64,000 nucleotides of DNA, taken from contig CANFJX010000008.1 in assembly GCA_947447665.1 (NCBI GenBank), positions 69,149 through 133,148 of the forward strand, in the 5' to 3' direction. The position numbers and the translations under genes are program-made. The notes under the pieces are model-generated. The model searched no databases and was not told where the DNA came from. It saw nothing but the letters and a program-made list of their open reading frames with translations. Numbering within the stretch: the stretch's first letter is position 1; each line of letters begins with the position of its first letter. Shown here in pieces: positions 49,858-54,744 of this stretch. Source of the stretch: Bacteriovoracaceae bacterium (GTDB lineage Bacteria; Bdellovibrionota; UBA1018).

Positions 49858-49934
49858 GGTGGCCATAGCTCAGTTGGTAGAGCACCGGATTGTGATTCCG
49901 GTGGTCGCGGGTTCGAGCCCCGTTGGTCACCCCA
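49858..49934 (+). tRNA. tRNA-His (anticodon GTG), with G-1 and encoded CCA
   Basis: Cloverleaf checked by hand: acceptor GTGGCCA/TGGTCAC, D stem GCTC/GAGC, anticodon stem CCGGA/TCCGG with loop TTGTGAT, T stem GCGGG/CCCGT with loop TTCGAGC. An extra 5' G pairs with discriminator C, as is His-specific. Confidence 0.9.
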
Positions 49935-49986
49935 AATTTTAGTTAAACCAAACCCGTGTCCTCCGGTTCTTTACGCTTCATGGTGG
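49924..49986. repeat. copy 1 of a 63-bp direct repeat spanning the last 11 nt of tRNA-His plus 52 downstream nt (att-like)
   Basis: 60/63 identical to 50848-50910. Seen directly. Confidence 0.6.
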
Positions 49987-50155
49987 ACGCGTGTCCGAAA
50001 GCCTTCAGGAGGAAGCGTTTAGGGCCATGAATGCGTGCCGTAACTAATTCTAGCTCGGCTTGGGATTTGCCAATGACCTCTTCAAAGACCCGACCTTTGT
50101 TGTGGTTCACGATGATGGTGACGAATTTCTGGGATCGAAGTCCAGTGGGCAACAA
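49943..50155 (-). CDS. small conserved hypothetical protein (70 aa); paralog of the ORF at 50867-51046
   Basis: Ends ...STMKRKEPEDTGLV inside the repeat. The core FVTIIVNHNKGRVFEEVIGKSQAEL is ~70% identical to the second copy. Confidence 0.4.
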   Translation of the reverse strand: MLPTGLRSQKFVTIIVNHNKGRVFEEVIGKSQAELELVTARIHGPKRFLLKAFGHASTMKRKEPEDTGLV

Positions 50156-50272
50156 ATCAGCTCAAATGCCATCCATCCGATGCAGTTGCTAAAATTGGCC
50201 CCTGGTTCAATGGCGCAGATGGGACCTCAACTCAATAACTCTGCTGACCTCAAATTCCGCTTGTCAATTGAG

Positions 50273-50509
50273 TTAAGCCGCATCCTTGAGGCGCCTTACA
50301 CCATCTGCAATCAAAAGACGCATGAGCACCTGATAGGGAACACCGCGCTCTTGGGCGAGACTTTTAAGTTCTCCTAAAAGCTCATCTTCAAGGGCAACAC
50401 TGGTCGGCTTGCGGCGAGCACCCTTAAGACGGCTCATACCCTCAATAATTTCTTTAGGGTCAAACTCTACCTTATCGTATTCCTTCAAGCGTTTTGCGTA
50501 CTTCTTCAT
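50273..50509 (-). CDS. brnA: BrnA-type antitoxin (ribbon-helix-helix/CopG-like)
   Basis: MKKYAKRLKEYDKVEFDPKE...RKPTSVALEDELLGELKSLAQERGVPYQVLMRLLIADGVRRL is the typical BrnA architecture. Overlaps the upstream toxin gene by ~38 nt. Confidence 0.7.
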   Translation of the reverse strand: MKKYAKRLKEYDKVEFDPKEIIEGMSRLKGARRKPTSVALEDELLGELKSLAQERGVPYQVLMRLLIADGVRRLKDAA

Positions 50510-50837
50510 AAACTCGCTTCTCCTTCTGATTTGCCGGTCTTGAACTGATCGGACGAACCCGACCCTCACGCAGAGTAAAAACCACAGAAATGAACTTTCC
50601 CGAAAGTGACGGCCCGACCACACAAAGGCGCTCTTCATCTACTGCAGGGGTTACCTGTCGTCCAAGAGGTACTGCCATGCGAAGACTGAAGACAGACTCC
50701 ACCTCGTCACAGCCGACTCCATGCTTCGTCTTGCGCTTCGTAGAGTTACCCACATCCCATTCAAATTCGAACGACTCGCTTTGTAGATACCAGTAAGCTA
50801 ACCAGAGAATAAATTTGAACTGGCCCATATATAACAC
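50472..50837 (-). CDS. brnT: BrnT-type toxin (DUF497, RelE-fold ribonuclease)
   Basis: FEFEWDVGNSTKRKTKHGVGCDEVESVF matches the BrnT FEWDxxKxxxNxxKHGVxFxEA signature. The real start may be internal (near MGQFKF). Confidence 0.7.
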   Translation of the reverse strand: MLYMGQFKFILWLAYWYLQSESFEFEWDVGNSTKRKTKHGVGCDEVESVFSLRMAVPLGRQVTPAVDEERLCVVGPSLSGKFISVVFTLREGRVRPISSRPANQKEKRVYEEVRKTLEGIR

Positions 50838-50847
50838 TATAGTACAC

Positions 50848-50910
50848 TGGTCACCCCAATTTTTAGTTAAACCAAACCGGTGTCCTCCGGTTCTTCACGC
50901 TTCATGGTGG
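50848..50910. repeat. copy 2 of the 63-bp direct repeat (partial tRNA-His 3' end copy, att-like)
   Basis: Begins with tggtcacccca, identical to the tRNA 3' end. 3 mismatches versus copy 1. Confidence 0.6.
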
Positions 50911-51046
50911 CCCATTTAACGTTTTCTCGACCGGGGATATGTGCAGAGGCGACCACCAGTTCGGCTTGGGTTTTGCCAATCACAGCTTCAACCATTTTTC
51001 CTTTGCTGTGGTTGACGATCGTGGTGACAAACTGAGTTCTTCTCAC
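50867..51046 (-). CDS. small hypothetical protein, paralog of 49943-50155 (probable GTG start)
   Basis: Hand translation of the minus strand: (V)RRTQFVTTIVNHSKGKMVEAVIGKTQAELVVASAHIPGRENVKWATMKREEPEDTGLV*. Not in the ORF track under this frame/start. Confidence 0.3.
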   Translation of the reverse strand: MRRTQFVTTIVNHSKGKMVEAVIGKTQAELVVASAHIPGRENVKWATMKREEPEDTGLV

Positions 51047-51172
51047 TTCTTGTTTTTGCCATAAGCGTGCTCGTCGATACCAATTGCGGATGGCCAGGGA
51101 GCCCCTTCTTTTTCACGTCTGCCCTGTCGCAAGTTTTCGTAGTGAGCCTCATAGACAAAACGGGAAGAGACT

Positions 51173-52312
51173 CTAAAACCATTGCCCCGACCACAATCGG
51201 TCCAAAAAATCTCTCCACGGGTAGATCGTAATGCCATCGACTTTACGAACTTTTGGGTCTTGGGAAACTACAATGTAATTTTGGATCAATTCTTCTTCTT
51301 TTAATGCCTTTAATCCCTTGAGATGTTTTTCTTGAACCAAGCTAGTCGATTTGATTTCAATCGCAAGCACGTCCTGGACAATCAGATCAACCTCTTGGCT
51401 ATGAACACTCCGCCAATAAAATAATTCGAGATCTCTTCTCAAATAGGAGACGTAGGCGCGGACCTCGCAAATGATAAACTGTTCAAACGCCTTGCCAAAA
51501 AGCTCACTCCCCGGCAAGAGATCACGGCGTCGGGCCAAATAATTCGTCACCCCCAAATCGAAGAGATAAAATTTAGAGCGCGAGATCGCCTTGCGTTTTT
51601 TGGTTTTCCAGAATGAATGCAGTCTAAACCCAATCAGAGTGTCTTCCAAAATCTCTACGTAGTTGCCTACTGTTTTTGCTTTGACCTGTGCATCACTTGC
51701 AATGCCCTCGAGAGATAACTCTTCTCCCGACTGGAGCGCCGCCACCTCGAGGAACCTTGAAAATTGGTCCAATTTTCTAACTAAGGCTTCAGCCAGAATC
51801 TCTTCCTTGAGATAGATGCCTACATAGGCTTTTAAATCTTCTAAAAAATACTCAGACAAAAATACTTTCGGAATCCCACCCCGATTAACATATTGAGTCA
51901 GGTCAAAATTTGGAATTTCTCGATAAGTCAGAGGAAAAAGATTGGCCTCCCACACCCTCCCACCGAGGAGATTCGATTCGCTTTGCCGTTTTAACTTTCG
52001 AGCACTACTTCCAGTCAAGATAAACTTTAATCGTTGTCTTTCGATGAGCCGATGCACTGAGTCGAGCAAAACTGGAAGCTTCTGAATTTCATCCAAAACC
52101 ACGATACGGCCCGGCTCCGACAGGGCGAGCTCTTCTTCGAGTAAGGCCGGACGAGCCAGCAAACGAGAAAACGTACCCGGTTCTAACAAATCATAATAAA
52201 CCGTATTCTCGATGCCCTGCACGAGAGTCGATTTACCGGTCCCTCGGGGGCCGAAGAGAAAGAAACTGTTCTTTTCTATCAGGTTTTCTAGATTCAAAAT
52301 GCGAGTAAACAT
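51173..52312 (-). CDS. AAA-family ATPase with a C-terminal DUF4143-like domain
   Basis: Walker A (LFGPRGTGKST), Walker B (IVVLDEIQK), then a ~200-aa C-terminal domain as in AAA_14/DUF4143 ATP-binding proteins. Confidence 0.65.
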   Translation of the reverse strand: MFTRILNLENLIEKNSFFLFGPRGTGKSTLVQGIENTVYYDLLEPGTFSRLLARPALLEEELALSEPGRIVVLDEIQKLPVLLDSVHRLIERQRLKFILTGSSARKLKRQSESNLLGGRVWEANLFPLTYREIPNFDLTQYVNRGGIPKVFLSEYFLEDLKAYVGIYLKEEILAEALVRKLDQFSRFLEVAALQSGEELSLEGIASDAQVKAKTVGNYVEILEDTLIGFRLHSFWKTKKRKAISRSKFYLFDLGVTNYLARRRDLLPGSELFGKAFEQFIICEVRAYVSYLRRDLELFYWRSVHSQEVDLIVQDVLAIEIKSTSLVQEKHLKGLKALKEEELIQNYIVVSQDPKVRKVDGITIYPWRDFLDRLWSGQWF

Positions 52313-52377
52313 ACCTTTTATTAGAACCTAAGTTTCCAAAAAAATCCACAAATAGAAATAGAGTTTCCTGTAACAGG

Positions 52378-52496
52378 AGATTTTGGGGGGATTTTGGGGG
52401 CGATTTTGGGGACGGAGTAGGGATTTCCGTCTTAAATTCAGCCGCTTAGGTGAACTCCGTCCCCATGTACATAGGTGAGCTCCGTCCCCATGTACA
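52378..52496. promoter_or_regulatory. iteron-like repeat cluster: 3x gattttgggg (11-bp period), then ggggacggag and two ctccgtccccatgtaca copies; the first is the inverse complement of the core of the last two
   Basis: Seen directly at 52378-52411, 52407-52416, 52455-52471 and 52480-52496. Immediately upstream of the AAA ATPase start. Confidence 0.35.
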
Positions 52497-52510
52497 GATA
52501 ACGAGCGTGT

Positions 52511-52864
52511 TCATAGTACGGTGTTCTTCCAAGGCCCCGCATTATACACGTTACTAAAGCCTTTTCGCTTTAATAAGGCTAAAGCCATTCCGCTGCGCGT
52601 CCCAGATGCACAGCAGAGGACGATAGGTTTTTTACGATCAAGTCGATCCACTTCTCGCTCCAGCGCATCTAAAGGAATATTGAGACTTCCCTCACGGGCG
52701 CCGCTAGAGAACTCGCCTTGACTGCGAACGTCTACTACCACTGCCCCTTGCGCAAGAAGAGACGGAAGTTGTTTGCGCACCCAGCGAAACCTAAGAACGC
52801 GCCAGACGACGAGCCCAACCAGAACGGCAGGGATTAGATAGGTTTGTAGGTTTTCAAAATCCAT
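52511..52864 (-). CDS. rhodanese-domain protein with an N-terminal membrane anchor
   Basis: VVVDVRSQGEFSSG...IVLCCASGTRS is the rhodanese active-site loop (CxxGxR). Hydrophobic N-terminus. Confidence 0.7.
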   Translation of the reverse strand: MDFENLQTYLIPAVLVGLVVWRVLRFRWVRKQLPSLLAQGAVVVDVRSQGEFSSGAREGSLNIPLDALEREVDRLDRKKPIVLCCASGTRSGMALALLKRKGFSNVYNAGPWKNTVL

Positions 52865-52877
52865 AACTTGGCTCCCT

Positions 52878-53486
52878 TTATTTTACTTTCCTACAGATTA
52901 CTTGTGTTACGGCACTCAATCCAAAATGGCCTTTGCCCTCTTGAATCTCTCTTTCGATTTCATGGGCTACGACAAATGCTAGCCCTGAGAGTTCTTCGTG
53001 CAAGTCATGAAGGGTCATCATAAGACTTGAGTCCGAAGGTCCTCCCGTTTTAAGCCCCAGCTGCCTAGGGTGATAGGATTCCAAAAGCAAAACTCCCCCA
53101 GGACGGAGTCCCTCTAAGACAGCGCGATGAAGTTTCTTTCTCAGCTCCTTGGGGACGTGGCACCAAATGGAGATGATTCCATCCCATTTTCCAGGCTCTA
53201 TTTGGTAATCACCAAGGTCACTCACGATCGAAGCTACAGATACCCCCTTCATTTTCGCTAGCCGATCCATCTTATTCAAGCCGACTGCCGACCCATCGAC
53301 TGCTGTCACTTTAAGACCCAGGCCCGCAAGAAAGACTGCATTGCGACCTTCACCCTCGGCTAAACACAACACCTCTCCAACATTAGGGATCAGATTTGCG
53401 TTTGCCTTTAAAAAATCGTTAGGCTCAGTCCCATAATAAAATTCATCCGTACTGTATCTGGTGTCCCAGGTATTCATTGTTGCCAT
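52878..53486 (-). CDS. class I SAM-dependent methyltransferase (TehB-like small MTase)
   Basis: EVLCLAEGEGRNAVFLA (motif I), VDGSAVGL and VLLLESYHP segments. 202 aa. Confidence 0.7.
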   Translation of the reverse strand: MATMNTWDTRYSTDEFYYGTEPNDFLKANANLIPNVGEVLCLAEGEGRNAVFLAGLGLKVTAVDGSAVGLNKMDRLAKMKGVSVASIVSDLGDYQIEPGKWDGIISIWCHVPKELRKKLHRAVLEGLRPGGVLLLESYHPRQLGLKTGGPSDSSLMMTLHDLHEELSGLAFVVAHEIEREIQEGKGHFGLSAVTQVICRKVK

Positions 53487-53900
53487 TGAGTTACGGCCTA
53501 CTCTCTGGAAGAATGAAGCTCATTTTTTCGACCCAAGCGAATTGAAATTTCATAAACATCTCGTTTATATTTTATTTATTATTAATACAAATAAAGAGGT
53601 CATTCCTATATTTTCTCAACAGTAAATCTCTTTCAGAGCCCGCAGGAGTTTGACGATTTTTTGTCGCGTATTCCGTAATAAACATGTGCTCCGTCCCTCC
53701 TAGTGACAGGGTGAGAGAGAGATTTTAGAACCTGACTCACTTCGTCGCATTTTTCCAGTATAGCTTTCGATACATTGCTTTTCATAGGCCAAATGACCTC
53801 AGGAGGTCATCCTAGGTCAATTATCCTATAAGGATCCATTTCATATTATATTATGCTAATACGTTAGGAATTCAGAGGCTGTACGGAGCACCTCTGCTTT

Positions 53901-54248
53901 TCAAGCAATCTTCAACGTCAACATAGGCTTAATCATCTGCAGGAATGTAATCAACCGATCCAAGGTAAACTTCTGAATTCTATAATGAATAATTTCACTA
54001 ACACGAGTCTCCGAAGTGCCCAACACCTCCGCAAGTTCTCGTTGAGTCATCTTCTTCTTCTTCATAAAAACAAGAATCTGCTCACAAACATCATATTTAG
54101 CGCGGTCTAAGGGAGAGGCATCGGGAGACAAACCTTCGGACCCCTTCACACATGCCATCTTTTTCCGAATTAATTTTAATTCCTGTTCACTAGGAAACTT
54201 TGCCACGAGACCTCCTAAAAGCATTAATAATAACGATATAATCTTCAT
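53901..54248 (-). CDS. XRE-family HTH protein, HigA-type antitoxin
   Basis: MTQRELAEVLGTSETRVSEIIHYRIQKFTLDRLITFLQMI is a Cro/C1-type HTH typical of HigA antidotes. The start may be the internal MACVKG. Confidence 0.65.
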   Translation of the reverse strand: MKIISLLLMLLGGLVAKFPSEQELKLIRKKMACVKGSEGLSPDASPLDRAKYDVCEQILVFMKKKKMTQRELAEVLGTSETRVSEIIHYRIQKFTLDRLITFLQMIKPMLTLKIA

Positions 54249-54426
54249 CGGGATGCAAACACCAAACTAAACGATAGGGCTTCTGGCCAAAATAAAGTGG
54301 ATCATTTACAAAAATCTACCATCCTTCACCTGAAATCGAATCTGCCCCAAAGGTTCTGCCGTTCAACCCTTTCACCAACTCAAGAATCAACGAGTCATTC
54401 ATAGAATCTAAAATGATTAATCTCAT
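54190..54426 (-). pseudogene. RelE/ParE/HigB-like toxin gene interrupted by an in-frame TAG
   Basis: Hand translation: MRLIILDSMNDSLILELVKGLNGRTFGADSISGEGW*IFVNDPLYFGQKPYRLVWCLHPDEDYIVIINAFRRSRGKVS*. Toxin-like size and a Y-R-L-V...D...I...I C-terminal pattern. Immediately upstream of and overlapping the XRE gene. Confidence 0.3.
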
Positions 54427-54519
54427 AATGACTGTCAATGAGCACTCGATTGACTAGTTTTCCGTTGATCGTTAACCTTAGCAGGTAGTCTCGCCGCATA
54501 TACACTCTAGCCTACTCTA

Positions 54520-54539
54520 ACTTACGTTTAAACGTAAGT
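54520..54539. terminator. perfect 20-bp palindrome acttacgtttaaacgtaagt followed by a T-run (orphan terminator-like hairpin or binding site)
   Basis: Reverse complement equals itself. Followed by atattttttat. No plus-strand ORF of 60 aa or more precedes it. Confidence 0.3.
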
Positions 54540-54744
54540 ATATTTTTTATCCTGTTTTACATGACTTCGCCTATACCGAGCCGAATCATACCCGGAACAG
54601 CCCCCATGGGCCACACCAGGACCGCCCCAATCCGACCACGCCTGCTTCATGGCCGTCTATTGAAATTAAGAATCTGAATCACGGTCTTCCCATACCAAAG
54701 TCCCCCATTCTTGGTCGTCCCAGGCGACTATTTATAAAACAGCT

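Follow-up and report, generated by a model that had tools for sequence, protein, structure and literature searches.

What process leaves a second copy of a tRNA 3' end downstream of an intact tRNA gene, with a toxin-antitoxin (TA) pair between the two copies? The question is raised by a locus in a 64,000-nucleotide stretch of contig CANFJX010000008.1 (assembly GCA_947447665.1), hereafter the window, from a Bacteriovoracaceae bacterium of the Bdellovibrionota, where the end of a tRNA-His gene and the DNA beside it recur as a 63-nt direct repeat around a BrnT/BrnA module. A first-pass annotation had read the two copies as attL and attR, the footprint of a site-specific integration into the tRNA-His 3' end, and had proposed that the attP site of the incoming element carried a diverged homolog of a small chromosomal gene next to the tRNA. 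On the sequence comparisons presented here, both small open reading frames (ORFs) beside the repeats are pseudogene fragments of ISL3-family transposases and not small-protein genes, and the locus holds no working element, being a stretch of mobile DNA that has decayed and is now immobile. The explanation that we favour, with roughly even confidence, is a decayed integration hotspot at the tRNA-His 3' end, in which a duplication made by an integrase was later struck twice by insertion sequences (ISs) and the integrase was lost.

The tRNA-His gene (GTG; 49859-49934, + strand) is intact as judged by ARAGORN and by Rfam RF00005 (67.9 bits), has an encoded CCA and a G-1 at 49858, and is the sole tRNA gene of the window. 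A repeat search of the window returned the 63-nt direct repeat at 49924-49986 (R1) and 50848-50910 (R2), with 95% identity and a start-to-start spacing of 924 bp. The recurrence first described, of the last 11 nt of the tRNA and the next 52 nt with 3 mismatches, is thereby confirmed; the mismatches lie at positions 49936, 49955 and 49972. A 31-nt core of the repeat has only 2 matches in the 64 kb, for an expectation of 0 from shuffled sequences. The third copy that the first-pass annotation had suggested looking for was absent: searches of the window with the exact 11-mer, with the 31-mer allowing 3 mismatches and by local alignment gave nothing above noise for the tRNA end plus flank. The repeat pattern had no match in viral contigs, and no terminator or Rfam element was found within it.

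Each copy of the repeat is a composite of 11 nt of tRNA 3' end, 30 nt of flank, and 22 nt that belong to the terminal inverted repeat (IR) of an IS, as described below. In R1 these parts occupy 49924-49934, 49935-49964 and 49965-49986 (the right inverted repeat, IRR), and in R2, where the first part is a displaced tRNA-His 3' fragment, 50848-50858, 50859-50888 and 50889-50910. The two copies differ at 2 positions in the 41 nt that are not of IS origin and at 1 of 22 in the IRs, and identity within the 63 nt is perfect only in blocks of 12, 18, 16 and 14 bp; because these blocks are so short, the repeats are poor recombination substrates. An integron attC reading, prompted by GTTAAAC in the flank, was rejected: no inverse core is present, and 33 of the 63 nt are already explained as tRNA end or IS IR.

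The left edge of the repeat is informative. It falls on the first base of the 3' acceptor strand of tRNA-His, that is, at the junction of the T stem and the acceptor stem (tRNA position 66), so that the tRNA part comprises 7 nt of acceptor stem, the discriminator and CCA. This junction, termed 'J', is a very common crossover subsite of tyrosine integrases and one of three, the others being the anticodon loop and the T loop (PMC4383910). An intact tRNA gene followed downstream by a displaced 3' fragment in the same orientation supports a classical tDNA-integration footprint at this locus.

We examined the two ORFs beside the repeats, one of 70 aa at 49943-50155 and one of 59 aa at 50867-51046, which had been described as small proteins about 70% identical to each other. 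Their measured peptide identity is 57-58%, and the indel that separates them has a length divisible by three. The 70-aa ORF belongs to no Pfam family, and a word-indexed search of 5.8 billion proteins matched only its own copy in a near-identical metagenome-assembled genome (MAG) of the same organism. A profile search of 1.84 billion representatives gave marginal matches, which became meaningful only once loci from metagenomes had revealed transposases. These loci, 12 in number, came from a metagenome scan seeded with an alignment of both ORFs, and their extended frames encode proteins of ~394 aa that are ISL3-family transposases by Pfam (PF01610, E=5e-50, with the ISL3 zinc ribbon) and by NCBIfam (NF033550, 240.9 bits; cut-off 180). 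When the full-length transposases were compared with the window by tblastn, they matched at two places only. The match at 51204-50888 covers residues about 114-220 (E about 1e-37) and is split between two frames, and therefore contains a frameshift; that at 50140-50024 covers residues 168-206.

The DNA of the IS relatives places the repeats themselves in context. Full-length relatives are ~1.32 kb long and end in terminal IRs, GGCTCTTCACGGTTGATGGTGG, of the form GG(C/T)TCTTCACG..., and the innermost 22 nt of each 63-nt repeat, GGTTCTT(T/C)ACGCTTCATGGTGG at 49965-49986 and 50889-50910, are this IR. Neither window copy is an intact IS with both IRs and a complete transposase: the right IR occurs twice in the window and only twice, and the left-end IR does not occur in it. 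A DNA profile built from six full-length copies was used with nhmmer to delimit the remnants. Remnant 1 (49965-50127, - strand; E=8e-18 and 1e-5, and a right-end alignment to metagenomic locus L004) consists of profile positions 1265-1322 at 49965-50022 fused to positions 612-715 at 50024-50127, and lacks positions 716-1264 and 1-611; the 70-aa ORF is a read-through of it. Remnant 2 (50889-51204, - strand; E=1.3e-66, also seen by tblastn) is of a different ISL3-family lineage and consists of positions 463-742 (51181-50903; transposase residues about 114-216) fused to the terminal IR through a 7-nt microhomology, CCACCAT. It has a frameshift near 51046-51058 and has lost its left end, and the '59-aa' ORF and a further '64-aa' ORF are its pieces.

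The two remnants do not share a recent history. Their internal deletion junctions differ: in remnant 1 codon ~207 is joined to sequence lying 58 nt short of the IS end, and in remnant 2 codon ~216 is joined to the IR. Neither can therefore be derived from the other. Outside the 63 nt, a second and weaker direct repeat (50052-50125 and 50958-51031; 74 nt, 77% identity) is offset by 18 nt. Over the 102 nt of transposase sequence kept in both, the remnants are 68.6% identical, with 6, 8 and 18 differences at the first, second and third codon positions, an enrichment at the third (chi-square p=0.02), and remnant 2 is nearer to metagenomic IS copies (81% to L005 and 77.5% to L004) than it is to remnant 1. 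For these reasons the remnants represent two IS lineages that diverged while coding, and not a recent duplicate. The 63-nt repeat, by comparison, differs at 3 of 63 positions against 32 of 102 for the shared remnant segment (Fisher p=2.4e-5), and any model of the locus must explain how a young shared block of tRNA end, flank and IR came to be joined to two old and different IS interiors.

These data dispose of the proposal that the repeats carry a small gene and its homolog. Whether as a diverged copy brought in on attP or as an old tandem duplication of that gene, such an origin now seems extremely improbable. The 57% identity of the two ORFs and the in-frame indel speak for it; against it, the ORFs are fragments of 394-aa ISL3 transposases with a frameshift in one and internal deletions in both, the small ORF as such has no database relatives beyond these ORFs from the same organism, and divergence is 5% in the repeat and 31% beyond it. 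The common C-terminus, MKR(K/E)EPEDTGLV, which had been taken for a conserved protein end, is translated IS inverted repeat and intergenic DNA, since the IR maps there. The flanking ORFs being remnants of two ISs with independent internal deletions, the attP-borne homolog is refuted, and the simple old tandem duplication that the first-pass annotation had set against its own proposal is ruled out by the strongly uneven divergence.

The inclusion of the IR in the high-identity block brings in a more substantial rival, namely that the tRNA end, flank and IS end were duplicated as one 63-bp piece with no site-specific recombinase involved. By one route, a tandem duplication of 924 bp would have joined the brnT promoter to tRNA position 66 as its novel joint, and a deletion between CCACCAT repeats would then have joined the IS end of the new copy to internal sequence of another IS that was already present; by another, the unit would have been copied by a one-sided, repair-type event. 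In its favour, the IRs of the two copies differ at only 1 of 22 positions, and the IR of remnant 2 meets the transposase interior exactly at the 7-nt CCACCAT. It also fits the lack of an integrase among the ORFs tested and the nature of the R2/brnT junction, to which we now turn.

Between the repeats lie only IS fragments and the brnTA operon. As the first-pass annotation had it, this is a brnT/brnA pair, and both genes score above their Pfam cut-offs. The toxin gene brnT (50472-50828, - strand) encodes 118 aa (PF04365, 59.2 bits; cut-off 34.5) and the antitoxin gene brnA (50273-50509, - strand) a ribbon-helix-helix protein of 78 aa (PF12441, 29.7 bits; cut-off 28; also PF01402), a length that is likewise called in conspecific contigs. 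The operon is toxin-first, and its genes overlap by 38 nt (50472-50509). An alignment of the regions upstream of 10 BrnTA loci revealed a conserved promoter/operator, 'TTGACn...TTAGTATAGTGTACTATAGTG', of which the window keeps only 'AGTGTACTATAGTGTTATAT' at 50829-50847; the -35 box and the first operator half have been replaced by the tRNA fragment of R2. Because a conserved promoter is truncated there, the R2/brnT junction is not an untouched element end but an illegitimate joint of secondary origin. Both genes are intact and invariant across samples, and the module is probably functional even though its native -35 box is gone. The spacer between remnant 1 and brnA (50128-50269) matches neither the other BrnTA loci nor the IS profile and is possibly IS sequence in a further state of decay.

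To place the module, we compared it with BrnTA loci in other genomes. More than 300 BrnT homologs were found; among the 120 matches listed, identities are 66-87%, several are named Bdellovibrio or Bdellovibrionia, and many lie on contigs of ~1 kb. No BrnT relative was found in viral contigs, and the literature searched held nothing relevant on BrnTA islands at tRNA genes. At the DNA level, blastn shows that four other loci share a module of ~580 bp with the window at 78-80% identity (window 50270-50848, reaching from 20 nt before the ATG to the brnA stop), and homology stops exactly at the R2 edge (50848) and, on the other side, at about 50270. Direct repeats 0.7-1.1 kb apart surround the module in several other genomes. 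In L034, BrnTA lies ~380 nt downstream of a tRNA-Arg, and beyond the module the tRNA's last 11 nt plus 8 nt recur as a 19-nt copy (L034:3443-3461 and 4448-4466; 1005 bp spacing); the repeat starts exactly at the T/acceptor junction, as does that of the window. In L036 and L039, BrnTA lies 175 nt downstream of a tRNA-Ser, and ~150 nt past brnA there is a displaced tRNA-Ser 3' fragment (L039:817-842) followed by a C-terminal remnant of a tyrosine integrase (PF00589, E=9.5e-6). In L047 the module is flanked by a 53-nt duplicate of the 5' end of a DUF167 gene (2899-2951 and 3576-3628; 677 bp spacing), and in L031 by 75-nt repeats that are group II intron 3' ends (3795-3869 and 4889-4962). Four of nine loci have no significant direct repeats around BrnTA. 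A separate feature of L034 is a set of nested inverted repeats (arms of 46, 37 and 31 nt) at 3422-3702, between the tRNA and brnT, which form a palindrome of ~280 nt; it contains the 3' end of tRNA-Arg with the flank downstream of it, and then the reverse complement of both.

IS sequence is absent from every other BrnTA locus, and tRNA-end repeats around BrnTA therefore arise independently of the IS; the idea that the IS itself makes such repeats was rejected on the same ground. These loci also bear on the duplication of the 63 bp as a unit, which leaves unexplained both the T/acceptor boundary here and at the tRNA-Arg of L034 and the association of BrnTA with tRNA-Ser fragments in L036 and L039. 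That account further requires at least 2 extra steps and a second IS located away from a tRNA, contrary to the habit of the clade described below. We accord it an appreciable but minority chance.

The same comparison suggests a different mechanism, in which BrnTA would move as an insertion cassette in its own right and duplicate 19-63 bp of target DNA, tRNA ends being only some of the targets, either through a long target-site duplication or through Campbell-type insertion of a small circle with short homology. Consistent with this are the conserved module DNA that ends exactly at R2, the significant bracketing repeats in L047, L031, L034 and the window, and the many BrnT homologs on contigs of roughly 1 kb. 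The distance from module to repeat varies from 0 to 396 nt, which gives no fixed element ends; four of the nine loci lack repeats; the L031 repeat is more simply two intron insertions; and an IS remnant contiguous with the repeat is also present between the two copies in the window. We know of no enzyme that makes target duplications of 19-63 bp, which counts against the cassette as well, and we regard it as improbable.

The integration hotspot remains the reading that we prefer, and it can be set out as follows. Recombination by a tyrosine integrase at the T/acceptor junction would have duplicated the tRNA-His end together with a conserved arm of the integrating element or elements. One or two related islets may have integrated in tandem, and the 30-nt flank would be their shared attP arm; the 95% identity of the flank is explained if it is an attP arm common to two tandem islets. 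Each integration would have re-created a tRNA-proximal flank, open to insertion at the same hotspot by an IS clade that targets tRNA flanks, and hence two different IS lineages could have come to lie at the same nucleotide. Later deletions, some of them IS-associated, would have removed the integrase or integrases, the left ends of the ISs, most of the cargo and part of the brnTA promoter. From the general biology of TA systems, the pair would have survived since its loss is counter-selected. The attL/attR footprint first proposed is upheld in part, by the layout of tRNA and displaced fragment, the T/acceptor boundary and the related BrnTA loci; it is weakened in that 22 of the 63 repeat bases are IS IR and the R2/brnT junction cuts a promoter.

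Several observations weigh against this history. The absence of an integrase between the repeats, already remarked in the first-pass annotation, was confirmed and extends further: neither the DNA between the repeats, nor the 13 kb downstream, nor 20 further window ORFs yielded a tyrosine integrase (PF00589; 30+ ORFs tested). The window offers no third repeat copy. Two IS lineages are needed at the same nucleotide, and no consensus that could account for so exact a placement is visible beside other IS copies. The single difference in 22 between the IRs fits equally a duplication of the whole 63 bp as a unit, and the joint between R2 and brnT is illegitimate and lies inside a promoter. The orientation of BrnTA relative to the tRNA is opposite to that in L034 and L036, and the 924-bp segment is far below normal island size. 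Nor do relatives supply an empty site. The gene upstream of tRNA-His encodes a Bd3614-type deaminase, which assigns the organism to the Bdellovibrionota. Five contigs from different samples carry an identical deaminase and match the window at 100% over 5.3-6.7 kb, with no empty site or polymorphism among them, and no deaminase neighbour was found in species-representative genomes. In the nearest other species (deaminase ~53% identical), upstream synteny is kept and the downstream region is rearranged. The related species represented by L018 has an identical tRNA-His sequence and lacks both the repeat and BrnTA; what follows the tRNA is a simple terminator and then a Fic gene, and its downstream genes are otherwise different.

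The ISs themselves provide a separate result. We examined the IS loci L002-L013 and L022-L030, drawn from metagenomes and from Bdellovibrionota and Oligoflexia MAGs, together with the window. In 13 of 14 evaluable loci 8-191 nt separate the right end of the IS from the 3' end of a tRNA gene, and the two always converge; the tRNAs are Met, Val, Val, a truncated tRNA, Cys, Met, Ala, Arg, Leu, Arg, Ala and His, plus the His of the window. The probability of this adjacency by chance is negligible, assuming ~50 tRNA genes per genome and a 3.5-Mb genome. Past the right end, the terminal 8 nt of the IS itself are repeated in tandem in several loci, as one to two additional copies: GAAGAACC is present two to three times at L022:2413-2427, L024:645-660 and L030:2652-2659, GATGAACC is found at L009:4506-4513, and 15 nt are so arranged at L029:3001-3015. 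Since the ISL3 family makes an 8-bp target duplication, as is seen in the relative L005, the tandem copies fit repeated insertion at one spot, and they look like scars of repeated insertion at the same site or into the terminus of a resident copy. No sequence consensus was seen at the insertion points, and no duplicated tRNA end adjoins the IS in the other loci. Transposases of the clade are at most 30% identical to ISL3 transposases on sequenced plasmids, and the literature searched contained no description of tRNA targeting by ISL3 elements. On the positions of these copies, a divergent ISL3 clade of Bdellovibrionota and Oligoflexia looks like a DDE transposon directed to tRNA flanks.

A broader conjecture would combine the two kinds of mobile DNA. 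The BrnTA islets may be integrase-less satellites of Bdellovibrionota, mobilised in trans into T/acceptor junctions (His, Arg and Ser) and gene ends, which in the window coexist with an ISL3 clade directed, in one orientation, downstream of tRNA genes. We consider this unlikely as a whole. If it were true, the ISL3 clade would be a prokaryotic counterpart of the tRNA-targeting retroelements of eukaryotes, and the 63-bp repeat would record the interplay of two targeting systems.

To the right of R2 lies a stretch of different composition. At 51000-54650 the GC content is mostly 38-46%, against ~50% in the flanks, and returns to ~50% at 52.4-53.4 kb. The genes of the 51-54.6 kb region encode a DUF4143 ATPase, a rhodanese, a methyltransferase and an HTH_37 antitoxin with an interrupted toxin upstream. 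The stretch is consistent with a second, older accessory segment; no repeat marking its distal boundary was found. Its first gene, which opens a lower-GC accessory stretch reaching about 54.65 kb, encodes an AAA_14/DUF4143 ATPase by Pfam (51173-52312, - strand). The last codons of this gene (51173-51204, - strand) overlap the left edge of IS remnant 2, and the event that truncated the remnant may also have replaced the native 3' end of the gene. The intergenic region upstream of the ATPase gene contains two tandem 25-nt copies of TAGGTGA(A/G)CTCCGTCCCCATGTACA, 96% identical, at 52447-52496. The HTH_37 gene belongs to a second TA-like pair (53901-54440, - strand), in which a HigA-like antitoxin ORF at 53901-54248 is preceded upstream by a RelE/HigB-like frame with an in-frame stop (...ISGEGW, stop, IFVNDPLYFGQKPYRLVW...).

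Three further features lie elsewhere in the window. A rhodopsin gene cluster in this Bdellovibrio-like genome (54745-59889; annotations from the identical contig L001) encodes a fatty-acid-desaturase-type protein (carotenoid ketolase-like), a Caroten_synth protein, an acyltransferase, a glycosyltransferase, a BCD-family protein (PF15461) and a protein of the bacteriorhodopsin family. A RING-finger domain (zf-RING_2, E=1.3e-8) lies at the C-terminus of a 398-aa protein (9780-10976, - strand), and a TcdA/TcdB-type glycosyltransferase domain (E=5e-16) is present in a 395-aa protein (4880-6067, + strand); both domains are eukaryote-like or effector-like, in the genome of a predatory bacterium.

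How does the locus compare with known systems? Integrase-less remnants of integrative elements that are flanked by att sites and mobilisable in trans are known from Streptococcus thermophilus as cis-mobilisable elements (CIMEs). The window resembles them as a short segment with att-like direct repeats and no recombinase, plausibly derived from a larger integrated element by deletion, or by tandem accretion, and differs in that neither a cognate integrative element nor an integrase was found for it and one att-side junction looks damaged. With tDNA-integrated islands as catalogued by Islander it shares an intact tRNA at one end, a same-orientation displaced 3' fragment downstream, a fragment boundary at the 'J' subsite and accessory cargo in the form of a TA pair (PMC4383910). 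Unlike such islands it has no integrase, and its spacing of 924 bp falls outside the 2-200 kb range of Islander, by which candidates of <2 kb are rejected (PMC4383910); the locus does not qualify as an island in that sense. Its identity block also runs 52 nt past the tRNA to include an IS end, its distal junction cuts a promoter, and it gives no sign of mobility. The att-like repeat should accordingly not be taken as the sign of an active element.

The cargo is familiar in kind. BrnT/BrnA is a type II TA system, with its prototype in Brucella, that pairs a ribonuclease toxin with a ribbon-helix-helix antitoxin. The window module matches it in its toxin-first overlapping operon and in its BrnT_toxin and CopG-type ribbon-helix-helix domains, which score above the Pfam cut-offs; it departs from it in the tRNA fragment that has taken the place of the -35 box and first operator half, and its activity is a prediction. 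TA modules stabilise integron cassettes and genomic islands against deletion, and here too, in a decayed mobile region, a TA pair alone has stayed intact among the cargo enclosed by direct repeats, with the difference that repeats whose perfect blocks span only 12-18 bp are in any case too interrupted for efficient recombination. The locus shows how mobile DNA is layered at a tRNA 3' flank and how a TA pair can outlive the element that carried it.

A further comparison is with ISL3-family ISs (PF01610, NF033550), whose transposase fragments make up the window ORFs and whose ~1.32-kb relatives end in the same IR; they differ in that both window copies are dead remnants that keep the right end only. 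For annotation, three 'hypothetical small proteins' should be renamed ISL3 transposase pseudogene fragments. To our knowledge the almost exclusive siting of this clade, immediately 3' of tRNA genes and in one orientation only, is not a habit of the ISL3 family at large. The locus itself is ordinary, a degenerate tRNA-linked islet with IS debris, and the tRNA-directed ISL3 clade is the more interesting subject: if its insertion 8-190 bp downstream of tRNAs, repeatedly at the same spot, is confirmed, it would amount to a DDE transposon with natural targeting, whose mechanism would merit study.

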